A stretch of 64,000 nt of DNA from Gammaproteobacteria bacterium. GTDB taxonomy: Bacteria > Pseudomonadota > Gammaproteobacteria > Eutrophobiales > Eutrophobiaceae. Each line of letters starts with the position of its first letter. Position 1 is the stretch's first letter. The DNA is taken from NCBI GenBank assembly GCA_965243205.1, contig CBDEUK010000002.1, positions 160,001 to 224,000 of the forward strand, given 5' to 3'. The notes under the pieces were generated by a model. It had not been told where the DNA came from. It made no database searches and was given only the letters and a program-made list of their open reading frames with translations. Below are positions 26,027 to 41,037 of this stretch, in pieces. Both the position numbers and the translations under genes were made by a program.

Positions 26027-27355
26027 TTATAACCATTCCAAACCAATGATTATATCATTGGCATTTTGAAAACGTTCGGACTGGTCTTTGGCCATTAAAC
26101 CACTAACCAATGGCTGATATTTGCTTAAATGTTCTGGTAGAGGAGGTGGCTCTTCGTTAATGTGAGCAAATATAAGTTGTGAAATACTATTGGCAGTAAA
26201 AGGTCTTCTGCCAGTTAGCATTTGATAAAACATGACGCCTAGGCTGTACATATCACTTCGTTTATCAACCTTCATGCCCGAAGCTTGTTCAGGACTCATA
26301 TAATACGGTGTACCAACTACCATATTATTAACCGTTAAATCTTCGAATTCACCACTGATATTTTTTGCCGCTCCGAAATCTGTAATTGTTAGGGAGTTGT
26401 CATTACGGAATAATATGTTTCCAGGTTTTAAGTCTCTATGCACGACATTAATATCATGCACGGCTTGCAAGCCGACAGCCATCTGTCTTAAGTATTCAGC
26501 AGCTTCTTCATGATGAAGACCGCCACGTTTTATACGGTGTGATAAATCACCATTAGGAAAATATTCCATCGCAATATAAGCGAAGTCGGTAGCAAACGCT
26601 CTTTCATAAATATTAATAATATGAGGATTGTTTAAGCAAGAAATCAAAGTATATTCTTGCATGAAGCGTTTTAAAGCTAATGGGTCTTCTTGGCCTTTAG
26701 TAAATAAAACTTTTAATACGATTTTTTTATTATCTTCCAGTCTTCGAGCTAATAAAACAGTAGACATCCCGCCTTGGCCGATTTCACGAATAATTTTATA
26801 ACCAGGAACATTAATAATACTATCTTCCATGCCAGGAATCAGAGATTCGTCCGTACTCAACATCACATCCGTAATAGTTTCGTTATCTTCTGCAAGATTA
26901 TCAGTTTTTTCAGAAGGTACGGATGTTAGGTTGGTTTGTTTTTTAGGTGAAAGATCGTGATGTTTATTAGCAAAATCCAAAGCATCATTTATTTTGGCTA
27001 AAATGATTTCTTCATTAGTTTCGTGTTTTAATAAAAAGTCTGTTGCACCCAGCTTTAATGATTCGACTGCTATTTTTGTACTGTCTTGACCAGTTAGCAT
27101 GATAACTGGTGGGATATCCATAACATCCTTGACTTCATTGAGAGATTTAAGGATATACAGGCCATCGACTTCGGGTAAACCAAAGTCATAATCCAAAAAC
27201 ACAAGAGAATAATCTTGATAGTTAATGGCTTCTACGGAAACATCTTGATGAACTGGATCACATTCAGTAATTTCAGTATCAGGGTAGCTTGATTCGATAA
27301 ATCGTTTTAATAATTTCCGATAATCGCTGGAATCTTCAATAATCAGTATACGCAT
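26027..27355 (-). CDS. Receiver domain fused to Hanks-type Ser/Thr kinase
   Basis: REC (IIEDS, LVFLDY, MLTG, K) then GQGGMS, VLK, HRDLKPGN, DFG, GTPYYMSPE. Confidence 0.92.
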   Translation of the reverse strand: MRILIIEDSSDYRKLLKRFIESSYPDTEITECDPVHQDVSVEAINYQDYSLVFLDYDFGLPEVDGLYILKSLNEVKDVMDIPPVIMLTGQDSTKIAVESLKLGATDFLLKHETNEEIILAKINDALDFANKHHDLSPKKQTNLTSVPSEKTDNLAEDNETITDVMLSTDESLIPGMEDSIINVPGYKIIREIGQGGMSTVLLARRLEDNKKIVLKVLFTKGQEDPLALKRFMQEYTLISCLNNPHIINIYERAFATDFAYIAMEYFPNGDLSHRIKRGGLHHEEAAEYLRQMAVGLQAVHDINVVHRDLKPGNILFRNDNSLTITDFGAAKNISGEFEDLTVNNMVVGTPYYMSPEQASGMKVDKRSDMYSLGVMFYQMLTGRRPFTANSISQLIFAHINEEPPPLPEHLSKYQPLVSGLMAKDQSERFQNANDIIIGLEWL

Positions 27356-27391
27356 CTAGGCCTGCAAAATAATTATTACTTTTTTGAATTA

Positions 27392-30300
27392 TTATACATC
27401 TTCACTGAGTAAACTTGCTACATCATCAAGCAAATTATCCTCAGAAAATGGTTTGGTGGTATATCGATTAACACCCATATCAAAAGCGAGCTGTTTATGT
27501 TTATCAGTCGAGCGAGACGTTATCATGATAATTGGGATATGTTTTAAATCCGACATTCCTCGTACATGAGAGGTTAGCTCTATTCCATTCATACGAGGCA
27601 TTTCAAAGTCGACTAAAATAATCGACGGTTGTTTCTTTTCCATGAGGCCGATTGCCTCAATTCCGTCTTTTGCTGTCATAATTTCATAACCGGCGTCTTT
27701 CATTACCTGAGATAATGCGCGTCGAGTACTAATCGAATCATCAATAATCATAACAGTAGGGGCGAGCTTAATAATACTTGTGTGCGATAAATTTAAAGTT
27801 GTAGAGGTTTTGCCAAATACTTTTGTTCTGATGAGATCAGACATATCTAAAACAGGTACAACACTTCCATCACCAACAATGGTTGCACCTATGACACCTT
27901 GTACGTTTTTAAGATATTCGCCCATATTCTTTACGACAATATTCTTGCTGTCGGCAATAGTATTTACAAATACGACTCGATTCGAATTGTCATAATTAAT
28001 TAACAAAGCAGGGCGTATATTATCTTTATCTATCGTATTTTCATTGCTTGAATGTAACAAGTATTCAATAGTGTAAAAATCTATTTTATTACCATCTACA
28101 ATAAGTTTTTGAGAGCTATTTTGCTCGATCACTTCTATGTCATTAGGATGTAAAATTCTCTCAACATCATAATTGGAAATAGCAAGCAATTGTTTTTTAT
28201 GTTCGATAAAAATAGCATGCGAAGTCATTAAACTGACTGGCATGCTCAGTTCAATATTAAGACCTTTGTTTTCTTCAGAATCGATATTTAAACGACCGTT
28301 TAAAGATAATAATTCTGAATAGACGACATCCATGCCAACACCTCTACCCGATGTTTGGGTAGCTTTTTCTCTAGTGGTGAACCCTGGTTGTAGAATTAAT
28401 CGATATATTTCTTCCTCAGGTATATCAGAATCTGAATTTATAATCCCCTTGTCCTCTGCTACTTGGAGAATTTTTTCTTTATTTAGACCTGCGCCATCAT
28501 CTGAAAATTGAATGTTAATTTGAGTGCCGATCCGGGTGATGTTAAGTATTATTTTGCCTGTTTGGGATTTTCCTTGTTTAACTCGTTCTTCTGGTAATTC
28601 AATGCCATGATCAACGGAATTTCGCAGCATATGCATTAATGGATCAATAATTCTATTTAAAATACTTCTATCGATTAAAGTATCTTGCCCTGTACAATAT
28701 AATTTTGCCTTCTTTTTAGTTGTTCTACATGTTTGCCTAACACATCTTTCTAATCTTGCCACAATCGAACTTATCGGAACCATACGCGAACGCATCATGG
28801 TGTCGTAAATTTCATGTTGTAGATTGGTTTGGCTATAAAGAATTTCGTTGATGTTTTTTAATTCAGAGCCAATATCAATATTGATTTCATTAGAATCTGT
28901 TGCTGCTTCAATAATTCGGTTAGAAGCAGTATGTAACTCGTTATATTCTTCTAGTTCTAATGGATCAAAATAATCAGATTGATTGACTACTTGCTGTTTC
29001 GAAAGGGCGTTGCCGCTCATTTCTATAAAACGCTCTAATTCATTACTGAGCTCGCGCACAGTAGTATTCTGTTCTTTTAAATTATCAGTTTTCATCAGTG
29101 AATCGTTGATTTTTTCTTTCAACTGTAAATTTAAAATCATAGACTCACCAACCAAACGTAATAGGCTATCTATTGTATCTATTGGCACAGAAATCATTTC
29201 TGTAGGTTTATCTTCAACTTTCTCCTCTATTTTTTCTTGTTTCAGAGTGGATGTAAGTTCAAAACTTCTAGTCAATTCCGAATCTATTTCATCATCATCA
29301 GAATCAATTATGTCTATGCCTTTTGTTTGTAATAGATTTAGCCAACCCAATATCTCTTGAGCAATATCATAGGTGTAATCAGGTGACTCCTTTCGTTCCA
29401 TTAAAGATTCGGACATATCTTCTAAACAATCAGTTGCTGAAATTAACATTTCGGATAATTTGGAAGATGGAAATTTTTGATGTTGACTAAGAATAGAAAA
29501 AATATCTTCAAGTTTATGTGTTAAATACGCAATACCTTTTATACCAACTGTATTTGCAGCACCTTTTATAGTATGTGCTACACGTTTTGCTTTTGTTAAC
29601 GCATTGATGTCAGGATTATTACTACATAATAATTGTATGGCTTCTGATAGATCAGACATTTGGCCAGGAAGTTCTTGCAATAAACCATCGAGTAAATCTG
29701 AATTGATTTCTTCAGTAACTGTAATAGAAAGGTCATTGTGATCAATTTCTGTAACAATATTATCTTCTGTTAATTCATCTTCAGACACGCACGATGCATT
29801 ATTCAATAATTCAATCAGTACATTCGATTGTTCTTCATTGATAGGAACTGGCAAGTCAATATTTTTAAGAAGCTGAATTATCTCATTCGATTGTTGGGGT
29901 GAACCTACATTCATAAGATAATCAGTAACGGTTTGTATCCAGTCTTTTAGGATAGATGAATGCTCAGGGCTAAAGACTTTTTTATCGACTAAATAATTAA
30001 TATTTTCTAAAAATACAGTGTTTGCTTGATAAAGGCCGGTTAGTTCTGCTGCCTGAGAGGCATTGGCAAACCGTTCAATTCTTAAATGATATTTAGATAT
30101 TTTTTCTAACTTAGTCTCTATGACATCATCTTTTTCCGGGATCAATTCATTAATTTCATCGGCAATTGATAACATTTCAGATAACAACATATCAATAAGA
30201 TCTGAACTGATAAATGCATCATCTTCAGGATTATCTGATGGTGTAACTTGAAAGTGGTTAGTTTTATTATTTTCTTCAATCGCTGAAGCTAATAAATTTC

Positions 30301-31558
30301 CATGAAAAGTATGTATGCCTGTATTTTCATTAAAATCAATAAGAATATTTTTTAATAATTCTGCATCTTCAATGCTTAATGGATTAATCCAAAATGGTTT
30401 CTGTAAGTATTGGATGATTGCACTGACGTTTTCAGAAGCTCCAGGTGCTTGATAATAAATTTGGATTAATTCAGGAAAGTGAGATAAAAATTTAATTTCA
30501 TCATGGGTTAATGTTGTTTTCTCTTTAATTAAAAGAGACATGGCCTCTTGAAAATATAAACAGATATCTTGTATACCTAAAAGGTTTTCTCTGGCAGCAA
30601 TTTTAACTATATGTTGTATTGTCTGTTCTATCTCTTCAATTCTAGTTTTTGATTGGTCAAAACTTAAAATTAAATTTTTAGTTTTGGTTAATGTTTGGGT
30701 GAAATTTAACTCTAATTTCTCACTCTTATCTTTCTCTTCTAATAGAGTATCTTGAAGACCAAGTATTTCTAAAAGAATTACTTTATCATCATCTGTTATA
30801 GCAACAGGCCAATGAATATTAGATAAGTTATTTATTAAACCAATTGTATATTCTTGGTTCTCAGGATTTTCAATATATTTATTCGCTAAACTAATCCATG
30901 ATGCAATTAATGTCATTTGAGTGTCTGTAACATTCTCTATATCTTCACAGAGTATTGAAATGTTATCTAATGCCATTAGACATAGATCATGAAAACCAAG
31001 GAAGCCAGATGTTTCAGCAACTTCAGAAATGTTGTCTATTTTTTCTTTAAAATCCAATAACGTATTAGAATCATCGCCTAATAGTTTTGTGGCCGTTGTG
31101 ACTAAATGTGTTATGGTTTTTGATAGTCCATCTTCGTTTGCATCCTCTTCTTTAACATCATCTTCGTTAGATGTATGTGTTATTAAGAGTTCTTTTAGTA
31201 CATCACAATCATTTTCTTCTATGGGAATAGGCCAAGTAATATCACTTAAATTTTGGATAATATATTCAACGGTTTCTTTTATGTCTTTATTATTGAAATA
31301 GTCATCTAAAAGTTTTGGCCATTCTTTAAGTAGAGTATGTTCAGAATCAGATAGCATTTTATGTTCTTCATAGATACATAAAATATTATCTTGTAGTAGG
31401 AGTGATATATTATTTAAAGGAAGATAATCAAGAGTATTGGTTTCTTTAGAAATACTCTCTAAACAGTCAATAATACGTGTAAGAGAAGCAGGGTTATCCT
31501 GATTATATTCTTGAACCGAATATAATAAATTATCTAGCGACTCTTGAATATCATTCAT
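27392..31558 (-). CDS. ChpA/CheA-like hybrid chemosensory kinase (pseudo-Hpt repeats, Hpt, HATPase, CheW, REC)
   Basis: AHTIKGAA Hpt, HMLRNSVDHGIE, DDGAG, PGFTT..SGRGVGMDVV, C-terminal REC. Confidence 0.92.
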   Translation of the reverse strand: MNDIQESLDNLLYSVQEYNQDNPASLTRIIDCLESISKETNTLDYLPLNNISLLLQDNILCIYEEHKMLSDSEHTLLKEWPKLLDDYFNNKDIKETVEYIIQNLSDITWPIPIEENDCDVLKELLITHTSNEDDVKEEDANEDGLSKTITHLVTTATKLLGDDSNTLLDFKEKIDNISEVAETSGFLGFHDLCLMALDNISILCEDIENVTDTQMTLIASWISLANKYIENPENQEYTIGLINNLSNIHWPVAITDDDKVILLEILGLQDTLLEEKDKSEKLELNFTQTLTKTKNLILSFDQSKTRIEEIEQTIQHIVKIAARENLLGIQDICLYFQEAMSLLIKEKTTLTHDEIKFLSHFPELIQIYYQAPGASENVSAIIQYLQKPFWINPLSIEDAELLKNILIDFNENTGIHTFHGNLLASAIEENNKTNHFQVTPSDNPEDDAFISSDLIDMLLSEMLSIADEINELIPEKDDVIETKLEKISKYHLRIERFANASQAAELTGLYQANTVFLENINYLVDKKVFSPEHSSILKDWIQTVTDYLMNVGSPQQSNEIIQLLKNIDLPVPINEEQSNVLIELLNNASCVSEDELTEDNIVTEIDHNDLSITVTEEINSDLLDGLLQELPGQMSDLSEAIQLLCSNNPDINALTKAKRVAHTIKGAANTVGIKGIAYLTHKLEDIFSILSQHQKFPSSKLSEMLISATDCLEDMSESLMERKESPDYTYDIAQEILGWLNLLQTKGIDIIDSDDDEIDSELTRSFELTSTLKQEKIEEKVEDKPTEMISVPIDTIDSLLRLVGESMILNLQLKEKINDSLMKTDNLKEQNTTVRELSNELERFIEMSGNALSKQQVVNQSDYFDPLELEEYNELHTASNRIIEAATDSNEINIDIGSELKNINEILYSQTNLQHEIYDTMMRSRMVPISSIVARLERCVRQTCRTTKKKAKLYCTGQDTLIDRSILNRIIDPLMHMLRNSVDHGIELPEERVKQGKSQTGKIILNITRIGTQINIQFSDDGAGLNKEKILQVAEDKGIINSDSDIPEEEIYRLILQPGFTTREKATQTSGRGVGMDVVYSELLSLNGRLNIDSEENKGLNIELSMPVSLMTSHAIFIEHKKQLLAISNYDVERILHPNDIEVIEQNSSQKLIVDGNKIDFYTIEYLLHSSNENTIDKDNIRPALLINYDNSNRVVFVNTIADSKNIVVKNMGEYLKNVQGVIGATIVGDGSVVPVLDMSDLIRTKVFGKTSTTLNLSHTSIIKLAPTVMIIDDSISTRRALSQVMKDAGYEIMTAKDGIEAIGLMEKKQPSIILVDFEMPRMNGIELTSHVRGMSDLKHIPIIMITSRSTDKHKQLAFDMGVNRYTTKPFSEDNLLDDVASLLSEDV

Positions 31559-31585
31559 AATGATAGGTCTAATTTATAAAATTAA

Positions 31586-32965
31586 TTAAATATCATCTTC
31601 TGAAAGTTTAAATACGCCAACCGATGCTACTAACGACATCGCTTGTTCCACTAATTGATCGGTATGATGAGTTTGTTCTTTTAAATGAGTACCTGTTTTA
31701 CGAACACTATCACGAATAATATCTGTACGTTCTCGTAATTGAGTACTTGTCTTAGCTTGTTGTACAGCGCTGTCTGAGATTTTTTGTACCATATTTACTA
31801 GATCAGCTGTAGAAGTTTGAGTTTCTCTCATTTGTTGACCTGCTTTTTCAGCCAACTGACTTCCCCCAACAACTTGACTAATCAATTCGTTCATGGTGTT
31901 AACAGTACCCGATGTTTCAATTTGAATATTATTAACTAGTGTTGTTATTTGATGAGTAGATTCTTTTGCGTTTTCAGCAAGTCTTTGTACCTCATCAGCA
32001 ACCACAGCGAAACCTCGACCAGCTTCACCTGCTGAAGCAGCGTGCATACTCGCATTCAACGCTAAGATATGTGTTCGTTCAGAAATATTGTTAATTAAAT
32101 TTACCGCAGTACCAATTTCTTGAGAACGTTCCCCTAAACGTTTAATTCTTTTTTCTGTCTCACGAATGGTATCTCGAATTTTATTAATACTATCGACTGT
32201 ATTGGTTACAGTCGTCATAGCGGTTATGGTCGATTTAATGGCTTCTTCTGCAGCAGAGTTAGAGTCTTGAGCAAGCTTGGAAATATTAGCCATAGCTTCA
32301 GCTGCTCTTCTTAATTCTTTGGCGGCACTATCAACTTCTTCTTGTTCTTTATCAGCTAATAATAATACATTATCTGATTGATTCTTAACTAAGTTAGATG
32401 TTTCAGCAACTTCGGTTGAAATTTCTGTTACAGAGTTCAGGACTTTTGCTGTTTCGTTCGTCATCATGTTTAACGCATCAGCTAATGGACCTGTTATGTC
32501 TTCATTCACAGTCGCTTTAATTGTAAGATTTTTTTGAGCTAATTGAGCAACTGTTTCTAATAACATCACGACAGAATCGTTTAACTGCTCATTTTCTTCT
32601 TCAATTCTTGAAAAAGCAGTAACACGATCGTTTAACATTGTGTCAATATAATTTCCGATTTTTCCAAACTCATTTTTTTCTTTTAAGCCAGTTCGTGCTT
32701 CTAAGTCGCCTTGAGATATTTTTTCAAGAGTTGAAAGTAAACGAAAGGTTGGCGTATAAAATTTATTTGCAAGAAAAACTGCCCCCACAGCGATTAAGAA
32801 TAAAGTGATAATTAGAGCAATTACAATGGGAATAAGGTTTTGAGAAAGTGCTTGGAAATTATTTTCAGCTCCAAGTGTATAAACAACATATCCAAAAAAG
32901 CTTAAGAATATTAAGCTGCCTATAAATGCAGAAAAATAAATGGTGTTTTTTGATGTGAATTTCAT
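31586..32965 (-). CDS. Methyl-accepting chemotaxis protein (PilJ-like) without periplasmic sensor
   Basis: Two close TMs, HAMP, signalling tip ILALNAS..AASAGEAGRGFAVVADEVQRLAE. Confidence 0.92.
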   Translation of the reverse strand: MKFTSKNTIYFSAFIGSLIFLSFFGYVVYTLGAENNFQALSQNLIPIVIALIITLFLIAVGAVFLANKFYTPTFRLLSTLEKISQGDLEARTGLKEKNEFGKIGNYIDTMLNDRVTAFSRIEEENEQLNDSVVMLLETVAQLAQKNLTIKATVNEDITGPLADALNMMTNETAKVLNSVTEISTEVAETSNLVKNQSDNVLLLADKEQEEVDSAAKELRRAAEAMANISKLAQDSNSAAEEAIKSTITAMTTVTNTVDSINKIRDTIRETEKRIKRLGERSQEIGTAVNLINNISERTHILALNASMHAASAGEAGRGFAVVADEVQRLAENAKESTHQITTLVNNIQIETSGTVNTMNELISQVVGGSQLAEKAGQQMRETQTSTADLVNMVQKISDSAVQQAKTSTQLRERTDIIRDSVRKTGTHLKEQTHHTDQLVEQAMSLVASVGVFKLSEDDI

Positions 32966-32982
32966 TTTAAGCTCTCAGTTCT

Positions 32983-33549
32983 TTATAGGGCATCATCTTG
33001 AATTTCTTCTTCAGAGTATTCTTTTGTGATGTAACGCATAAACCCTCTGAAGTCGACCTCTGACCATATAGTGCTTTCTATAGAATAAATAGATTTAATA
33101 AATAGACTTAATTCGCTAGGAATATTGCTAGTTTGATCAAAACTAGATTCTTTAGCGTTATCAAAATCTAATGCGATAGGAAATGCATCTAAATAAATAG
33201 CAACATATTGACCACCATGATCAAAAATAACTAATGGATTGGTTTCATCTCTTGTTTTAAATGACCATAACGCATGTAAATCAAATACCGGAATTAAATT
33301 TCCTCGATGATTAATTAAACCTCGAATCCATTCATGAGTGTTGGGAATAGGGTAAATAGAATAACTACGAATGATTTCGCATGGAATTGTTTGGTCAAAT
33401 AATAAATTTAAATCACACACTTTGTATCCGTATCGAATATTTTTTTCATCTGAACTCGATAAATCGACGAGTCCTTCAAACGGATCAAAGTGTTCAAGCT
33501 CAGGACTCAGTCTTATCCAATCAGGTGTTTTATTTGTATCTGAGTCCAT
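32983..33549 (-). CDS. CheW/PilI-like adaptor
   Basis: PIPNT..WIRGLINHRGNLIPVFDL. Confidence 0.88.
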   Translation of the reverse strand: MDSDTNKTPDWIRLSPELEHFDPFEGLVDLSSSDEKNIRYGYKVCDLNLLFDQTIPCEIIRSYSIYPIPNTHEWIRGLINHRGNLIPVFDLHALWSFKTRDETNPLVIFDHGGQYVAIYLDAFPIALDFDNAKESSFDQTSNIPSELSLFIKSIYSIESTIWSEVDFRGFMRYITKEYSEEEIQDDAL

Positions 33550-33557
33550 GGGAAATT

Positions 33558-33926
33558 TTAATTAGAAAACGTTTTGATCTGGTCAAGAATTTGTTCGGGT
33601 GTATAAGGTTTTGAGACAAGCTCTTTACCACCTTGCATTTTAGCCCAAACACGGTCAGCTTTTTGTTTTTTGCTGCTTACAAAGATCACTGGTATAGCTT
33701 GTGTGTCAGCATCATTACTGAGTTCTCTTGTTGCTTCATAACCATCCATTTCATCCATGACGATATCCATAAAGATGATGTCAGGTTTTTCCGTCTTTGC
33801 TAATTCAATGGCAATCTTTCCATTCTTTGCAGTTATAACTTCACAACCAGTTGCTTTTAAAATTTGTTCTAAGTTTTGTCGATCAGTAGAAGAATCATCA
33901 ACAACCAAAACTTTTTTTATCGCCAT
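33558..33926 (-). CDS. Single-domain response regulator, PilH-like
   Basis: VLVVDDS.T, DIIFMDIVM, DGYEATREL, SSK.QKADRVWAKMQG. Confidence 0.9.
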   Translation of the reverse strand: MAIKKVLVVDDSSTDRQNLEQILKATGCEVITAKNGKIAIELAKTEKPDIIFMDIVMDEMDGYEATRELSNDADTQAIPVIFVSSKKQKADRVWAKMQGGKELVSKPYTPEQILDQIKTFSN

Positions 33927-33961
33927 ACCTTATACTCTCCAAATATAACTCTATACAGATT

Positions 33962-34807
33962 TTAATTAATATTATTATTTATGTTATTTGGTATTTTTAC
34001 ATATTGATTAATAATTTCTTGAAATACCGCCTCACCAACAGGTTTGATTAAATAAGTATCACAGCCTGATAATTTACCCTTAATTCGATCGGCTGGTGAG
34101 GAGTTACCTGTTAACATTATTACAGGCGTTGATTTTGCATTACCTTCTTTTATGGTTTTACAAACCTCATAGCCATCAACACCAGGTAAGACTACATCTA
34201 GAAAGATAATATCGTATTGATTTTTATCAATCAGGGTATAAGCCTCTTCACCAGTTACAGCAAAATCTACATTAGCGTATTGTTTCAATGCTTTATCCAT
34301 TTGGATTCGCACCGGTAAGCTATCATCAACGACAAGTGCTTTTAATTCATTACCATTATTAGATGATGTTTTTTGCGATGCTGTTACATTGAAAGAAGTA
34401 TTTTCAAGTGTAGCATCTTGCATTGTAATCGTTTTCGCTAAAATAGCAGGTTGTTCTTGAAGCTGTAGTTCATTCTCCGCAACCTGATCCAATACACTAA
34501 TAACGCGTGTTGCTATTAATGGACGTTTAACTTGATAGTGTTTTGTTTTAAATTCTCTATCTTGTGAAACTAATACCGAAGAAGGTTCACTATAACCTTG
34601 TCTTTCAAGGTTATCTCGATATACACGCCATTTGATTAATGCAGAAGGTTCATCTGCATTCACCATTAATATATTTGGTCTGTCATCTAACGACTGTGCC
34701 GCGTAACATTTATTTCGAGTCTGAGAATAAGTAAAAGCCGAGTTTAATCGTCTCTCCTCGATATCAGGAATACCAATTAAACCAATTGTGACATTCTGCT
34801 TCTGCAT
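33962..34807 (-). CDS. PilG-like response regulator with extra N-terminal domain
   Basis: C-terminal REC (FLDVVLPGVDGYEVCK, DRIKGKLSGCDTYLIKP); ~150-aa unassigned N-terminus. Confidence 0.85.
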   Translation of the reverse strand: MQKQNVTIGLIGIPDIEERRLNSAFTYSQTRNKCYAAQSLDDRPNILMVNADEPSALIKWRVYRDNLERQGYSEPSSVLVSQDREFKTKHYQVKRPLIATRVISVLDQVAENELQLQEQPAILAKTITMQDATLENTSFNVTASQKTSSNNGNELKALVVDDSLPVRIQMDKALKQYANVDFAVTGEEAYTLIDKNQYDIIFLDVVLPGVDGYEVCKTIKEGNAKSTPVIMLTGNSSPADRIKGKLSGCDTYLIKPVGEAVFQEIINQYVKIPNNINNNIN

Positions 34808-34818
34808 AGCCTTTAGAA

Positions 34819-35820
34819 TTATGTATTATCAATCGTTAAGTACACTAAGGTTTGGTTTAATAATTGATATGCAATTTCACCAAATGTCATTGGGCCTGTA
34901 ATCTCACCAGTCTTTTTCCCTTCTAACTCAAGCCATAAATAGTTTAAGACACAGTTACATGAAAAAGTAATCGCGTTATCAAGATTAGGTAATGCTTTTT
35001 GAAATTCAGATACATAATCACTTGCTGGTGATGCTAATTTGTATTCAACACCACTAAATACAGGAGCATAAAATGAAACATTTTTATTTTCTGTATCATT
35101 TTCTTGAAAACATACGTTGATCATTGCACCAGAATAATTGGCGACTAATGGCAATTGAGTATCGATGTCATGTTCTGTCATGTAATCAGAAAGTGATTGT
35201 TCAACACCATTGACCAAACATTTTTGCGCAGAGAAACCCGTTTCTAAAAATTCAAAGGTATCCCCATCACCTTGTTGCACAGTGTTGATGATATTTAAAT
35301 TGGCAACTTTGTTTGGTGCAAGAGTGACATGCATTGCTACAGCTTTATCGCCAGAAGACTCACCTGTACCACCATTGAATACTTTCGGAGAAACAGAACC
35401 TAGATCGTCTAAGTGAATACCAGTTACCCATCCAATAATAGGTTTGATAAACATTTCTTCGTATTCAGGAGCTTTTTGTGCATAGTTTAGATGTATATCA
35501 CTGAATGCTGGAATCAGTAATACTGTAAATCCATCGTCGGGTGCATCTTTCGCAATATTTTCAATACTATTAGTGTTATAAAATTTAACTTGAATACGCT
35601 TAGCTAAAGAAGTGTCTAATTCAGCTGCATAAATTTCAGATTTTGTTGTTTTTCCACCGTCTTGTGACATGAAATAAGGAATTGTTCCACCAATCCATCG
35701 ACCTTTAGGCAGTTGTTTTAATAGTTCTTCATCTCCCGCTAACCAAAGGACTTTACCTGCTTCAATCGCAGCAGTCGCTTCAGCAACTGAAATTAATTTT
35801 GTGTTTACACTCTGACTCAT
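34819..35820 (-). CDS. FIST-like (DUF6976-type) cytoplasmic protein
   Basis: LAGDEELL..LPKG.WIGGTIPYFM, FSCNCVLNYL, GPMTFGEIAYQLLNQTLVY; no signal peptide. Confidence 0.7.
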   Translation of the reverse strand: MSQSVNTKLISVAEATAAIEAGKVLWLAGDEELLKQLPKGRWIGGTIPYFMSQDGGKTTKSEIYAAELDTSLAKRIQVKFYNTNSIENIAKDAPDDGFTVLLIPAFSDIHLNYAQKAPEYEEMFIKPIIGWVTGIHLDDLGSVSPKVFNGGTGESSGDKAVAMHVTLAPNKVANLNIINTVQQGDGDTFEFLETGFSAQKCLVNGVEQSLSDYMTEHDIDTQLPLVANYSGAMINVCFQENDTENKNVSFYAPVFSGVEYKLASPASDYVSEFQKALPNLDNAITFSCNCVLNYLWLELEGKKTGEITGPMTFGEIAYQLLNQTLVYLTIDNT

Positions 35821-35842
35821 ATCTATTCCTCTGACTCTCTAT

Positions 35843-37375
35843 TTATGCTGCAACCAACTGGTTAAGTTCAGCACGATGTTTTTGTTGATGTTTAATAAAG
35901 TATTGTCGAAGTATTTTCGCTCCAGCCATGCGGGTTGATTCCGAAGGATTTTTTTCGACTGAAATACGAATTCGCTCTAGCATCATTTTTAAAGCAACGA
36001 CATCAGTAACGATCTCTAATTCGCCATTGATTAAACGCTGCCAGCTAGGATGATCTTCAGCTGGAATTTCAGTATGTATATCTTCAGCTATTGTAGGGTT
36101 AGCGACTACTTGACCCAGTAAGATCAAAATTTCTTCACGATGCCTTGCTTGGTGTTTAACGAAATATTGATGCAAAATTTTAATACCAGCGGCTCGGTTT
36201 GATTCGGTCGGATTACGTGCAATCGACATTCTTACACGCTCTAACATCATTTGTAAGCCGACAGCATTAGTATCCAAGTTAATTGAACCGTTGAGTAATT
36301 TTTGCCAGCACTCATGATTAGTAGCAGGTACTGTAACTACTGCAGGCATGGTTACAGTCGTTGCTAATGGTTCTGAAGCTGAATCAATTCCAAGTTGTTT
36401 TAATTCCTCACTCAAACGGGTTTTGTGTTTTACAAAGAATTGTCTAAGAATTTTTGCTGCTGCATGTCGAGAACTTTCAGAAGGTGAGTTAGCAACTGAT
36501 AGGCGAACTCTTTCTATCATCATCTGCAAGCCAACATGAGCTGTATCGATGTTTTGCTCGCCAGAAATAATTTGTTTCCAACATTCATGTTGTTCTGCTG
36601 GTATACCACCCTGGATAACTTCTAGATTCGGTTTATCAGTAGCTAGGTTGGCTAAGTTGCCATTTAAGATATCAATATCTTCTCTATGAGTTGACTGATT
36701 CTTGACAAAATATTGCCTTAATAGCCGAATACCCGCTAATTTTGTTGTTTCGCTCGGTGTTTGAGTTACTTCTTGGCGTACTCTTTGAAGCAACATTTTC
36801 AAACCAACTGCATTGCTAGGTAATTCCAGTTGGCCTTGGATGAGTTTCATCCAGTTTGGATGTGTTTCCAGTGGAATTTCTTCCATTTCGATCAAATCGA
36901 AAGAATGAGCAACTGTTTCTTGGAATTCAGGCTCTATATTAATGCTTGGTTCGATTGGAGCTTCAATTCGTTCAATAGCCACTCCAGAACGCTCCGAAAT
37001 CTCTCGAACTTCAGAAGCTAATAAGCCAGTAACTTCGCTAACACCTTGAATTGACTTGGATATTTTTATAGCGCTAGTAACTAAATCCTCCATAGCTTTA
37101 GTGTAATGAGAACTTACATAGCGCCAATTATTTTCGTTATTCTCAAGAGCTGATTTCGGGATATGTAAAAATGTCCTCATCCCAAAAACAGGTAGATGTC
37201 GGAGTATTTCATACTCTTCATCATTATCTTTGCGCCAGGAGAAAAAAGAGCGAGTTGCCTCGGATTGAGCAATTGAGATATCGACACGATTCGAAGGACC
37301 GTCAATCTCAATATTAGTTGCGGACCAGCCTTCGTCCAACTTTAACACTTGGGTGCAGAATTCACTATCCCGCAT
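35843..37375 (-). CDS. Uncharacterised protein: ISL3-transposase-like N-terminus plus four ~90-aa tandem repeats
   Basis: Intact 510-aa ORF with RBS; see findings. Confidence 0.8.
   Translation of the reverse strand: MRDSEFCTQVLKLDEGWSATNIEIDGPSNRVDISIAQSEATRSFFSWRKDNDEEYEILRHLPVFGMRTFLHIPKSALENNENNWRYVSSHYTKAMEDLVTSAIKISKSIQGVSEVTGLLASEVREISERSGVAIERIEAPIEPSINIEPEFQETVAHSFDLIEMEEIPLETHPNWMKLIQGQLELPSNAVGLKMLLQRVRQEVTQTPSETTKLAGIRLLRQYFVKNQSTHREDIDILNGNLANLATDKPNLEVIQGGIPAEQHECWKQIISGEQNIDTAHVGLQMMIERVRLSVANSPSESSRHAAAKILRQFFVKHKTRLSEELKQLGIDSASEPLATTVTMPAVVTVPATNHECWQKLLNGSINLDTNAVGLQMMLERVRMSIARNPTESNRAAGIKILHQYFVKHQARHREEILILLGQVVANPTIAEDIHTEIPAEDHPSWQRLINGELEIVTDVVALKMMLERIRISVEKNPSESTRMAGAKILRQYFIKHQQKHRAELNQLVAA
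35855..36877 (-). repeat. Four intragenic protein repeats (start aa 167, 258, 349, 437)
   Basis: Consensus IP.E.H..W..LI.G......VGL.MMLERVR.S....PSE..R.AG.KILRQYFVKHQ..HR.E. Confidence 0.95.
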
Positions 37376-37524
37376 GATGACCCCCTCTGATCTATCTTAA
37401 TGTGAATTATTTATGCAGATCCTTCTGTATTATTACCGTGATTAATTATTTAACTATCAAGTTTAGACAGTGTTTCTGCTTTTACATGCAGCAATTGGCA
37501 AAATTAAGAATTATTTCACTGCTT

Positions 37525-37540
37525 TGTGATTGTTTTCTCA
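37525..37540. promoter_or_regulatory. Candidate CRP/Vfr-family site upstream of chemosensory operon
   Basis: TGTGA-TTGTTT-TCTCA, one mismatch to consensus. Confidence 0.45.
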
Positions 37541-37660
37541 ACAATTCTTAATGGAAATAATTAAAAACTACAGGAGTTTTACAAATTTATTACTATTTAT
37601 CAATAACTTTGATACATTATATAATAAGATTGTGAGCAGTATTTTATTTGATATTGCCCA

Positions 37661-37673
37661 TAAGTTATTGATA
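37661..37673 (-). promoter_or_regulatory. Candidate IHF site
   Basis: TATCAATAACTTA matches WATCAANNNNTTR; AT-rich context lowers specificity. Confidence 0.35.
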
Positions 37674-37764
37674 TTAATATAAATATTATATTTTTAATGC
37701 ATCATGTCTAAACTCCCTTTCATAACAACAAATTAGAAAAGTTTTATAAAGTACTCTATTGATT

Positions 37765-38520
37765 ATGGCCGTACTCTGGCAGCAACAGAAACATGATATC
37801 AAATATGAGATTCGTACAGCAGGAGCGACCAGGCGTTTATACAAAAATGGTGTTTGCCATTCTCAATATAATCCAAATCGCATTCTCACAGGCAGTGTTT
37901 GGGATTTATTATTTATTCCGAGTTTATTATTTGCTCAAAACTCTTCATTAAACGTCTTGGTGTTAGGGGTGGGTGGCGGCGCTGCGATTCGTTTATACGA
38001 TTATTTTCTGCCAGAAACGGTGATTCATGGAGTAGAACTCGATGCTATGCATATCGAGCTGGCCCAGAAATTTTTTGGTATCAGCCAAGATAATATTCAT
38101 ATTCATGAAGCTGATGCCAAAGAATGGGTTAAAGACTATGGTGGAAAACCATTTGATATTGTTATTGAAGATGTGTTCATGGAAGAAAAAAAACAACCGA
38201 TACGAGCTATTGATGCAACAAGTCATTGGTATCAAGACTTATTATCGTTGATGAAAGACGATGGTATGTTGATTATGAATTTTGCGAGTCTAAAAGAATT
38301 TCGTCAGTCGTCGGCATTACGCATAAAACAACTTAATCAACGGTTTAAAAGTATTTTCCAATTAACAACACCATCATTGGATAATGTGATAGGAGTTTAT
38401 TCACTTCAAACGTTCCAAACACAAGACTTGCACAATGCTTTGATGGGGTGCGAGCAGGTTAGAAAAGCGATCGAAACGAAGTATCTTCGATACAGAGTGC
38501 GTAAACTCAGAAATTTATAA
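37765..38520 (+). CDS. Spermidine synthase-like SAM-dependent methyltransferase
   Basis: VLVLGVGGG, GVELD, EADA, FDIVIED. Confidence 0.8.
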   Translation: MAVLWQQQKHDIKYEIRTAGATRRLYKNGVCHSQYNPNRILTGSVWDLLFIPSLLFAQNSSLNVLVLGVGGGAAIRLYDYFLPETVIHGVELDAMHIELAQKFFGISQDNIHIHEADAKEWVKDYGGKPFDIVIEDVFMEEKKQPIRAIDATSHWYQDLLSLMKDDGMLIMNFASLKEFRQSSALRIKQLNQRFKSIFQLTTPSLDNVIGVYSLQTFQTQDLHNALMGCEQVRKAIETKYLRYRVRKLRNL

Positions 38521-38524
38521 AGTT

Positions 38525-40414
38525 TTATAGTCTTGAAGAAACAAACTCGTCTGATTCAATCTCAACAGATTGGATTGCATCTTCTTCTTCAAATGAAGCT
38601 TTAGCAGCACCAACAAATTCTCCCATTGCTAAATCAGTACCATTAGCTATAGCGGTTGTTAAAGAGATTGAATCATTAATGTCTGTTACAACTACATATC
38701 GATTTGTTCGACGTAAGTAACTAATAAAGTTTTCAGATTTATCATCGACAGTCTCAACCAATTTTAATTCTGATAATTTATCATGATTGATGATCACCAT
38801 CCTAATATCGATCTTTGTCATGATCTCAGATAGTTCAGACAGTTCATTGATGTCACTTATCGCAAAGTTAAAACCATGCGAACTATGAAGATAGTTAATC
38901 AAAGCGATGATTTGTTTTTTATTGTCCTTAACAATCGAATGTGAAATATCAAGAATAATATTATTGCCTGGAGCTTGTTCCTCGTAATCACTCAGTAATG
39001 TTCTTAGCCAATTAAAAAATGTTGGGTCATCAAGTGTTTGTTGATTCAGTTTTAGTAAAAAATAGGATGGCTCAACTCCAGTTTTGATATCCATAATATT
39101 ACTGATGGTTTCTTTCAATAACCAACGATCGTAATATTTTATAACATCGTCTTCATGAATGTTTTCTAATAAATCGTTGCTATTTATTTCCTTGTCTTCT
39201 TTATCCATCAGTAATGAAGATAGATAATATAAATCATGTTCTGCTAGAAAAGAATCTTCACGTCCAGACAACATAATAATTGGCTGAAAAGTTTTAATCA
39301 TACTATTGTCATTAATAGATGAAACTAAAAGAGTAGCGTTTTCATCTAACTTATCAATATTAAGTTCAATATCGTATATTTCATTATTTGCTTCACTTTC
39401 ATTTTTAGGATCTGCTGCTTCTATTTCTTTATCAAAATCATTTTGCGATAGTATTTGTTCTGAGTCAGATTCTTTTTCAACAGGGGTTTGTAATTGTTGA
39501 ATATTTGTTATGTAGATTCGTTTAGATTCTAATTCTATGTTTGCTGCTTTATTGCACGCGATGTGAAAATATTTGATTAAATTCTGTTTGCTAACGGTTT
39601 TTTCAGTTAATGATAATCCACATGAAACGAAATTATATTCAACATTAGTTTCAGTATCGTTATATGGTGTTTCCAGGTGATACTCATGCAGGTTCTTTAT
39701 TAATTCTTTTTCGTCGAAAGATACATTATCAACATCTAATAACACAGCAACCATCGAACCACTGAATAATGTTATATATGGTTGAAAATTATTAGACATA
39801 AAATAACGACAACTTTCTTTTGCGATATGACGAGTGATTCTGTCTTTTGCAAAATCATTGATAGGCTGCTCTTTATTTTTTTCATAAATTCTAAAACCTA
39901 TAATGATTCTTTTTTGAACATTATCAATGGTTTCAATGTCTTGGTTTAAGGTTTTATAGAAATATTTTTTATTAAAAATTTGTTGAATGTTTTTTAGATT
40001 TTCTTGTTGCTTTAATTTTTTCTTTTTAGCAACAATCGCTTCATTGATTGACGCAAAAAGAATTTTCTTTGTGAGCTCTTGTTTGCGTATAAAATCTGAG
40101 ATGCCTAACTTAAGTGCTTTGAATGCAATTTCTTCGTCGTTACTTGCAGTAAGCATGATAGTAACTGGAAAGTCGGGGTTATCCTTATTTTGATGGAGGA
40201 TATCTAAACCAGTTGTATTTTCTAACCTTAAATGATGATCTAATAACAGGACATCATGCTGGCTCCAATCAAAATTTTCATCAGGCGCACCTGATACTAA
40301 AGGATCGTATTCGTGCAAAATATCGCTATCGAACTTTGTTTTTAAAATGCTGTGAGTGAGTTTTCGAAAATCAGGTTCATCATCAAAAATAAGAATTGAT
40401 TGGATATCAGCCAT
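38525..40414 (-). CDS. REC + degenerate GGDEF-like + degenerate EAL protein (FimX-like)
   Basis: REC (FDD, LLLD, MLT, K); FNKKYF at GGDEF start but no GGDEF; FQPII, DRW.L but no EAL or DDFG. Confidence 0.72.
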   Translation of the reverse strand: MADIQSILIFDDEPDFRKLTHSILKTKFDSDILHEYDPLVSGAPDENFDWSQHDVLLLDHHLRLENTTGLDILHQNKDNPDFPVTIMLTASNDEEIAFKALKLGISDFIRKQELTKKILFASINEAIVAKKKKLKQQENLKNIQQIFNKKYFYKTLNQDIETIDNVQKRIIIGFRIYEKNKEQPINDFAKDRITRHIAKESCRYFMSNNFQPYITLFSGSMVAVLLDVDNVSFDEKELIKNLHEYHLETPYNDTETNVEYNFVSCGLSLTEKTVSKQNLIKYFHIACNKAANIELESKRIYITNIQQLQTPVEKESDSEQILSQNDFDKEIEAADPKNESEANNEIYDIELNIDKLDENATLLVSSINDNSMIKTFQPIIMLSGREDSFLAEHDLYYLSSLLMDKEDKEINSNDLLENIHEDDVIKYYDRWLLKETISNIMDIKTGVEPSYFLLKLNQQTLDDPTFFNWLRTLLSDYEEQAPGNNIILDISHSIVKDNKKQIIALINYLHSSHGFNFAISDINELSELSEIMTKIDIRMVIINHDKLSELKLVETVDDKSENFISYLRRTNRYVVVTDINDSISLTTAIANGTDLAMGEFVGAAKASFEEEDAIQSVEIESDEFVSSRL

Positions 40415-40416
40415 AA

Positions 40417-41037
40417 CTAATTATTTTCCTTACTGATCTCATCTTGACGAAGTTCGACTAATTTTGTGAATGCATGAGCTACTTTTGGAGCGTGTTCAAA
40501 ATAAAAGGTTAGATCTGAATAATCTGCGCATAACAGTTCAGAGTTTTCTAATGTCCTGACTGATGCCGTGCGTAAGCCGCCAGTGAAATAGGCCATTTCA
40601 CCGATGGGATCGCCAGGGCCTAAGATTGCGATCACTTTCATTCGGCCTTCTAAATTCGTGTGGTATACAGCAGCGCTTCCTGTAGCCATAACATACATAG
40701 TGGGATCGTCATCACCTTGCATAATGAATTCATTTTGTTCTGGAACAGATACTTCTTTGAATCGACTACTTAATGCAGCCAAGTCGGTTTGACTTAAGGT
40801 TGAGAAAACAGGGCAGCGAGATAAACGACGAATTCGCTGTAATTTTACAGCGTTTTCTAATTCTTCTTTGCTAATGCTCCCTGATTCTAAGAGTAGTTGT
40901 CCGATAGGTTTATTATGCGTTTGGTCACCTGGATCGAGCACTTGTTTAGATAATGCTTTATTTATAGCACCATTCGAAATCGCTAAGTATTCACCGAGTC
41001 GTTTATCAAATTGATTTGTTTCATCAAAGTTGGTCAT
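40417..41037 (-). CDS. MshEN-like N-terminus fused to cyclic-nucleotide-binding domain
   Basis: RLGEYL...L..Q and IGQLLLESGSISKEELENAVKLQ; cNMP domain with GEMA...RTASV. Confidence 0.75.
   Translation of the reverse strand: MTNFDETNQFDKRLGEYLAISNGAINKALSKQVLDPGDQTHNKPIGQLLLESGSISKEELENAVKLQRIRRLSRCPVFSTLSQTDLAALSSRFKEVSVPEQNEFIMQGDDDPTMYVMATGSAAVYHTNLEGRMKVIAILGPGDPIGEMAYFTGGLRTASVRTLENSELLCADYSDLTFYFEHAPKVAHAFTKLVELRQDEISKENN

Follow-up and report, generated by a model that had tools for sequence, protein, structure and literature searches.

The co-option by the host of the DNA-binding heads of transposases is well documented in eukaryotes and has rarely been documented in bacteria. In the SETMAR-type domesticated transposases of eukaryotes, the DNA-binding head is reported to have been kept and fused to an unrelated module, with loss of mobility (PMC9062482, PMC10027918). 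Here, we describe a bacterial gene of comparable construction, located in a window of 64,000 nucleotides (the whole stretch of DNA that was analysed, corresponding to positions 160,001 to 224,000 of contig CBDEUK010000002.1, in the gammaproteobacterial assembly GCA_965243205.1; unless otherwise indicated, coordinates refer to this window). The gene (35843..37375, minus strand) is an open reading frame (ORF) for a protein of 510 residues, which is formed by a ~135-residue N-terminal head related to ISL3 transposases and by four 72-residue helical repeats, and it is followed by a gene for a DUF6976 protein and by a series of chemosensory genes. In what we consider the best overall reading, with a probability of roughly 0.55, the protein is a multivalent adaptor for a FIST-like sensor, and a non-mobile descendant of an ISL3 transposase whose head may still bind DNA.

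The 510-residue protein resembles the SETMAR-type proteins in the joining of a transposase head to an unrelated module and in the loss of mobility; it differs from them in being bacterial and ISL3-derived, in having a tandem array of variable length as the fused module, and in that its binding to DNA is something that we only infer. With the ISL3 transposases themselves it shares homologous first ~140 residues (a leader helix, a sheet or zinc ribbon with the RHL motif, a "W..GS.FT" segment and a three-helix helix-turn-helix, HTH). Unlike them, it has neither the DDE catalytic region nor the zinc ligands, its C-terminal two thirds consist of an unrelated repeat, and the gene is single-copy, keeps a fixed synteny and lacks terminal inverted repeats. 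FIST domains are regarded as sensors of small ligands and include the nitric oxide sensor NosP. The DUF6976 protein can be aligned over its whole length with 12 FIST proteins, but it constitutes a separate Pfam family and has no FIST match in hmmscan, and we know of no FIST protein that docks on a tandem-repeat adaptor. The gene cluster, which we take to be of the PilG/H/I/J-ChpA type, is similar to the Pil-Chp and the cyanobacterial Pix-type operons in that it encodes, in this order, a REC protein with an N-terminal extension, a CheY-like protein, CheW, a methyl-accepting chemotaxis protein (MCP) and a hybrid CheA of large size that carries Hpt and REC domains; it differs from them in closing with a REC-Ser/Thr kinase and, to our knowledge, such operons do not start with transposase-derived and FIST-like proteins. 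A literature search returned no paper dealing with DUF6976, none on the domestication of ISL3 transposases and none that connects FIST domains with chemosensory systems; HTH_Tnp_ISL3 is mentioned in one paper, on an unrelated subject.

The homology between the head and the N-terminus of the ISL3 transposases is demonstrated by profile comparison. The alignment (hhalign) of 105 N-termini of the family with six real ISL3 transposases, taken from genomes of the same class, has a probability of 98.9% (E-value 1.8e-17) and extends over 135 columns, covering the transposase positions 1-142. A hidden Markov model (HMM) of these six transposases (422 positions) matches the 510-residue protein in residues 1-129 only (model positions 1-141, E 3.5e-6), and it matches 153 of the 239 family proteins at E<=1e-3, in no case past model position 167; a reversed-sequence control with the same HMM yielded no match. 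When ten relatives were scanned against Pfam, Zn_ribbon_ISL3 (PF14690) was above cut-off in four (P0080, P0099, P0102 and P0113, with 26.8-30.5 bits) and HTH_Tnp_ISL3 (PF13542) was above its cut-off of 27.4 bits in two (P0018, with 33.9 bits, and P0075, with 33.0 bits). The 510-residue protein itself stays below both cut-offs: Zn_ribbon_ISL3 scores 12.2 bits against 25.5 (E 0.25, residues 59-74), and HTH_Tnp_ISL3 has no Pfam match in it, the segment being spanned by the hhalign and ISL3 HMM alignments. When the P0102 head (residues 1-150) was used as the query of a word-based search, ten matches were obtained, all of them family members and none a transposase, which means that the ISL3 link is visible at the profile level only.

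In structural terms, the N-terminal domain (residues 1-135; 36971..37375, minus strand, as for all the parts of the protein given below), delimited with hhalign, the ISL3 HMM and an AlphaFold2 (AF2) model, comprises the leader helix, a four-stranded sheet and the HTH. The sheet (residues 17-73; 37157..37327) corresponds to the remnant of the ISL3 zinc ribbon, as judged from a sub-threshold Zn_ribbon_ISL3 match and from the alignment of the relatives, and all four cysteines were lost from it. The HTH (residues 93-130; 36986..37099), with helices at residues 93-105, 109-116 and 120-130, is the counterpart of HTH_Tnp_ISL3 according to the AF2 model and to the Pfam matches of the relatives. An acidic and disordered linker follows (residues 136-167; 36875..36970), which is variable in the alignment and has a predicted local distance difference test (pLDDT) score below 50 at residues 140-162. 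The zinc-ribbon CxxC, absent from the 510-residue protein, is kept in 34 of the 105 relatives (a regular-expression count) and, in a subset of relatives, the CxxC and CxC align exactly with deletions in the 510-residue protein. No match to DDE_Tnp_ISL3 (PF01610) was found in the latter by hmmscan at E<=1, and the DDE catalytic part is absent from every family member seen. A first-pass annotation of this DNA, made from the sequence alone, had proposed an ISL3-like N-terminus devoid of both the CxxC motif and the DDE region, and the three proposals are borne out. The family thus offers a clean bacterial case of transposase-head co-option, with intermediates still holding the zinc ribbon.

The loss of mobility is equally apparent. 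The gene exists in one copy in the complete 2.79-Mb genome, and there are no inverted repeats at its ends; from nine pairs of inverted repeats in 34500-38800, none brackets the gene, in agreement with what had been reported at first pass. The order of the surrounding genes is the same in distant relatives (29 loci), and both architecture and synteny persist down to ~30% identity. In the comparison with a 70%-identical ortholog (L001), the proportion of synonymous differences (pS) is 0.75-0.97, which corresponds to saturation, and the proportion of nonsynonymous differences (pN) rises from 0.09-0.13 in the repeats to 0.28 in the head and 0.32 in the linkers. Synonymous sites are also saturated in relation to L094, a 48%-identical relative, and a dN/dS ratio is therefore not computable. 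The low pN relative to pS shows that the gene is under purifying selection. Together, the single copy, the synteny and the purifying selection indicate, in agreement with the first-pass annotation, that the gene was domesticated and is not mobile. Given that the 510-residue protein lacks what defines an ISL3 transposase (the DDE region, the inverted repeats and the mobility), it should not be filed as one.

The remaining two thirds of the protein are occupied by the fourfold repeat that had already been noticed at first pass. The H..W anchors of the four copies are found at residues 172, 263, 354 and 442, and the period of 88-91 residues is made up of a 72-residue core and of linkers with 16-19 residues. 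Located with a repeat HMM and the AF2 model, the copies correspond to residues 168-239 (repeat 1; 36659..36874), 259-330 (repeat 2; 36386..36601), 350-421 (repeat 3; 36113..36328) and 438-509 (repeat 4; 35849..36064). The last of these is the most conserved copy, with which repeats 1-3 share 47-53% identity, and it stops one residue short of the C-terminus. The AF2 model of the whole protein (with 95 relatives in the alignment, a mean pLDDT of 85.3 and a predicted template modelling score of 0.33) has a beads-on-a-string layout, in which folded units are placed on linkers of pLDDT <50. Each repeat is a unit of four helices in this model, and repeat 4 modelled alone reaches a pLDDT of 90.6.

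This unit does not correspond to any domain already characterised among the resources that were searched, namely Pfam and NCBIfam (no family reaching cut-off), the PDB by sequence (0 matches), the PDB by Foldseek at E<=0.001 (no match; best E 0.78 for the full model and 3.9 for a single repeat) and Atlas (no usable match). An origin in the C-terminal helix of the ISL3 transposases ("SNG.VEG...KR..YGF") was considered and rejected, since 473 repeats compared by hhalign with the six transposases gave an E-value of 0.8. Hence, judged by these searches, the repeat is a new domain, without relation to any part of an ISL3 transposase. Two other candidates were discarded. DUF4783 (PF16022) scores 22.9 bits in the 510-residue protein (cut-off 24.1) and passes in relatives only as a summed score, with no single stretch being significant and with ~35 of the 102 model positions matched; PF23271 (HEAT_GCN1), a precomputed label on some relatives, has no match in the source genome at E<=10. 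Both weak signals are read by us as noise, because of the helical repeats.

In a large protein collection, the 510-residue protein has 114 relatives of 300-800 residues. A profile of 67 repeats, searched against 1.84 billion representative proteins, retrieved 385 proteins at E<=0.001, the best 150 of which were examined, and the family proteins were classified with purpose-built HMMs for the head and for the repeat. The head is found at the N-terminus of 180 proteins, which have one (28 proteins), two (15), three (35), four (69), five (28) or six (5) repeats, a variation that suggests a tunable valency of sensor docking. At the other extreme, 12 proteins of 58-88 residues consist of one repeat and nothing else, and in one metagenomic protein (P0209) two repeats come after a complete GrpE domain. 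In a tree of 86 repeats, the first, middle and last copies of the main lineage fall in separate clades (repeat 1 of the protein described here is in the clade of first repeats, and repeats 2 and 3 are in the middle clade), so that the array is old and its positions have an identity of their own; within it, by the evidence of this tree, middle copies were gained and lost. A divergent subfamily with three repeats (P0135-like) was also noticed: metagenome scans with P0135 and P0195 returned nothing, and a sample of 401 genomes of the phylum returned only weak matches to the known gene, in G000 (the source genome) and G161. These proteins form a new family, with an ISL3-like head, one to six four-helix repeats, a repeat at the C-terminal end and DUF6976 encoded immediately downstream on the same strand, and the 510-residue gene shows both of the latter features. 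The automatic source names of the relatives are mutually inconsistent ("phage anti-repressor protein", "alkylated DNA nucleotide flippase Atl1", "transposase family protein", "hypothetical protein"), and only the transposase label has a basis in our analyses.

The gene that follows the 510-residue ORF encodes a 333-residue DUF6976 protein (34819..35820, minus strand; PF22396, E 6e-142), after a gap of exactly 22 nt (TAA...ATG), with AGAGGAA within. Related loci were collected from species-representative genomes, 31 in total; their sources are all Gammaproteobacteria metagenome-assembled genomes (MAGs), with the exception of two contigs of one "Gemmatimonadota" MAG and the cultured Methylohalomonas lacus HMT 1, which makes experiments on the module feasible. 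Two loci end at the gene, and in all the 29 that have downstream DNA, DUF6976 is directly downstream. Among the 26 loci extending past DUF6976, 25 go on with the 281-residue REC protein and with chemosensory genes, the long loci containing the full series (CheY-like, CheW, MCP, hybrid CheA and REC-Ser/Thr kinase); four loci, closely related to one another, are without the CheY-like gene. The linkage to DUF6976 and to chemosensory genes that had been suggested at first pass is thus confirmed. Of 400 genomes sampled from the class, 8 have the repeat and 9 have DUF6976 (10 copies), and each of the ten copies has a repeat-protein gene immediately upstream.

The exceptional loci are informative about which part of this arrangement is constant. 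In G017, an 86-residue ORF with a stand-alone repeat overlaps the start of DUF6976, and CheR and CheB then follow. In G374, a one-repeat form precedes DUF6976, after which come aroA, cmk, rpsA and a gene for an HU/IHF-type DNA-binding protein, and in L008 the pair is found without chemosensory genes, apart from a 75-residue REC fragment. In a metagenomic fragment (P0164), two repeats run into DUF6976 in one frame, with no intervening stop. P0164 and P0209 are single sequences from a short contig or a read set, in which artefacts of assembly or gene calling are possible. The invariant partner is therefore DUF6976, and not the chemosensory genes, because two loci (G374 and L008) keep the pair without them, and the repeat protein and DUF6976 are the conserved core, a self-contained two-gene module.

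Some further observations concern the history of the module in particular lineages. The fragment in L008 (12935-13162 of that locus, ~75 residues, just past DUF6976) matches the REC of the REC-Ser/Thr kinase, which fits a deletion of the intervening genes. Beyond these loci, the 401-genome sample of the phylum yielded just one decayed remnant, together with a truncated DUF6976; in the remnant (L122, G643:C1:2204017-2207337), part of the ISL3-like head (model positions 1-80) is directly adjacent to DUF6976 pieces that contain a stop codon and internal deletions, suggesting that the module was lost in that lineage. Two copies of the whole operon are present on two contigs of one MAG (L030 and L031), with nearly every gene broken into several frames, which looks like the outcome of long-read indel errors rather than of decay. 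Another genome (G015) has two intact paralogous pairs (L020 and L029), one with four repeats and the other with two.

DUF6976 is highly conserved, with a mean column identity of 73% in 23 sequences, and no relative of solved structure was found for it by sequence. The global hhalign alignment with the 12 FIST proteins (probability 92.9%, E 5e-8) spans 301 columns, in which both the FIST and the FIST_C parts are covered and the C-terminal G-E-I...N-Q-T signature is contained, and the local alignment (probability 91.9%, E 7e-7) spans 121 columns at the C-terminal end; Atlas gives FIST as a weak lead (score 0.88), and it also lists DUF6976 clusters in Bacillota. By these profile alignments DUF6976 is a remote relative of FIST, from which homology a role as a sensor would follow.

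Modelling of DUF6976 together with one repeat (repeat 4) gave a complex with a score of 0.64 (0.64, 0.67 and 0.39 in the individual runs), whereas the best of three controls scored 0.00; this score mark was attained for 58 out of 80 solved complexes, as against 2 out of 110 mismatched pairs, counts that hold only roughly with our own alignments in use. The runs share at least 86% of the contacts, and the partner has a pLDDT of at least 76. On the repeat side, the predicted contacts involve helices 2 and 3, including the invariant M27 and K58, and on the DUF6976 side they involve a patch with the invariant P118, P127, Y229, G231, F255 and A317-Y318-Q319. Within DUF6976, the predicted interface surpasses the remainder of the protein in conservation (permutation p 0.0135) and, in what concerns charge, the repeats are basic (median pI, the isoelectric point, of 9.7) and DUF6976 is acidic (pI 4.5). 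On the basis of this model, the repeat probably docks DUF6976. The first-pass annotation had hesitated between a ligand-binding and a scaffold role for the repeat; the predicted docking fits the scaffold role better than the ligand-binding one.

In the mechanism that we propose, the descendant of an ISL3 transposase has kept only its sheet-plus-HTH head, behind which lie four ~72-residue four-helix domains, spaced by flexible linkers. Each of these would dock one DUF6976 molecule, allowing up to four sensor subunits to be carried by one polypeptide, with the module heading the chemosensory operon in the source genome and in most relatives. If the head still binds DNA, which is the reading of it that we favour, at somewhat less than even odds, the sensor-loaded protein would regulate its own operon. 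A more general formulation, in which a DNA-binding ISL3 head is combined with one to six docking sites for a FIST-like cytoplasmic sensor, and the occupancy of these sites undergoes multivalent integration and is linked to DNA (through control of the chemosensory operon or through nucleoid anchoring of the pathway), is one that we hold only tentatively, as a considerably weaker bet than the adaptor reading itself. In any case, what is presented here is a protein family and a two-gene module, both of them new, whose mechanism is inferred rather than shown, and which provides a first testable functional context for a ~72-residue unannotated domain (385 profile matches), for the FIST-like DUF6976 and for the input side of the PilG/H/I/J-ChpA-like operons. 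If the more general formulation is true, the module would be the founding example of such a bacterial signalling module, and the repeat would define a new protein-binding domain.

The two components of this reading, the docking of DUF6976 and the binding of DNA by the head, have to be weighed separately, because several observations speak against one or the other. Regarding docking, the contact residues of the repeat show no significant excess of conservation over its other residues (p 0.165), the binding rests on one structure-model score, built on the same alignments that define the conservation, and the related loci and genomes are kin rather than independent samples (one of the genomes, G296, being unpublished). 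It could be that the repeats are basic helical modules for nucleic acid, for the membrane, for another partner or for oligomerisation, with DUF6976 being an enzyme or a sensor that shares their transcript but remains physically apart from them, as would befit their high pI, their simple helical fold with no informative structural neighbour, their occurrence behind a GrpE domain in one protein and the unremarkable conservation of their interface residues. We consider this improbable, given that all the copies of DUF6976 examined lie next to a repeat-protein gene, that the genes overlap or abut and are apparently fused in one protein, and that the complex model (0.64 against 0.00 for the best control) places the repeat on a conserved patch of DUF6976. 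Even less credit is due to the idea that the gene is a decaying or truncated insertion sequence remnant without host function, to which the ISL3 homology of the N-terminus and the name "transposase family protein", given by NCBI to one relative, might lead; an intact frame in single copy, without bracketing inverted repeats, whose architecture and synteny are kept down to ~30% identity and whose pN is far below a saturated pS, in a family where no member seen has the DDE region, makes it extremely improbable.

Regarding the head, the fold of the HTH is retained at high pLDDT in the AF2 model, its third helix is nearly invariant (R124, E125, S127, E128 and G131 are invariant in the family alignment), and the head is retained in the loci without adjacent chemosensory genes (G374 and L008). 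On the adverse side, the zinc-ribbon CxxC was lost in 71 of the 105 relatives, and stand-alone repeats pair with DUF6976 without any head. The head is also acidic (pI 5.0 and net charge -7, with a family median pI of 5.6), whereas six ISL3 transposase heads have a pI of 7.0-8.8, an argument that is weakened because the proteins of the whole operon are acidic. As for a target in the DNA, 8-10-mers shared in the 400 nt upstream of 18 representative loci (from 26 upstream regions) are not above those of shuffles, and an inverted repeat in the upstream intergenic region (37598-37630 / 37641-37673) is absent from L001, the closest locus with DNA compared, and is not conserved in relatives, one 11-nt arm recurring without mismatch in L009 only; by itself, this comparison leads to no conclusion either way on DNA binding. 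The same absence of a conserved upstream motif, together with the acidic head and the loss of the zinc ligands in most lineages, would be natural if the protein were an array or pathway scaffold, whose head docks a protein (for example the 281-residue REC protein, the MCP or the hybrid CheA) instead of DNA and feeds up to four sensors into the pathway, as a cytoplasmic input module. The chemosensory genes that follow in 25 of the 26 loci extending past DUF6976, and the head-less repeat and DUF6976 adjoining CheR and CheB in G017, point in the same direction, but the head-plus-repeat protein and DUF6976 also occur as a pair with no adjacent chemosensory gene (G374 and L008), and such a scaffold is, in our judgement, rather unlikely, if the most serious of the alternatives. 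That the head still binds DNA has, we estimate, somewhat less than an even chance, and a protein-docking role of the head is a less probable proposition. The earlier proposal that the transposase head was co-opted as a DNA- or protein-binding domain thus stands in what concerns its ISL3 origin and its domestication, while the continued binding to DNA is unproven and somewhat doubtful.

The 510-residue ORF has an ATG start, with a strong Shine-Dalgarno sequence (GAGGGGG) 7 nt 5' of it. The coordinates and the N-terminal residues given at first pass are those of a real ORF, for which the strand had not been stated. Since its upstream neighbour is divergent, the gene is the first of the minus-strand cluster; this position and the 22-nt spacing to the next gene had both been correctly perceived. 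Past DUF6976, the cluster continues at 26027..34807 (minus strand) with genes for the 281-residue REC protein, a 122-residue CheY-like protein, CheW, the MCP, a 1388-residue Hpt-CheA-CheW-REC hybrid and the REC-Ser/Thr kinase, as assigned with Pfam. On the other side, an AT-rich intergenic region of 383 bp (37376..37758), presumed to be the promoter region, extends toward the divergent gene. A promoter-like site in it (37712-37685, minus strand) matches 10 of 12 positions, such sites being no commoner than in shuffles, and an Rfam scan of 35000-38600 found no family.

The divergent gene encodes a spermidine-synthase-like methyltransferase (37759-38520, plus strand), and beyond it lie genes for a cyclic nucleoside monophosphate (cNMP)-binding protein and a REC-EAL protein (38525-41037, minus strand). 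The cNMP-binding gene, often with the REC-EAL gene, recurs upstream in several related loci (for example in L001, L004, L005, L008, L009, L015 and L019), which indicates that cyclic-nucleotide signalling genes travel with the module. Outside the window, the source genome contains a 394-residue ORF (L032 733-1914, plus strand; G000:C2, about 2059628-2060809) with a fatty-acid desaturase domain (PF00487, residues 12-227) and a C-terminal segment that matches positions 66-196 of the 240 of DDE_Tnp_ISL3, with 50.7 bits (cut-off 23). This is the only match to DDE_Tnp_ISL3 in the genome, and the ORF may be another host gene that carries a piece of ISL3 origin.

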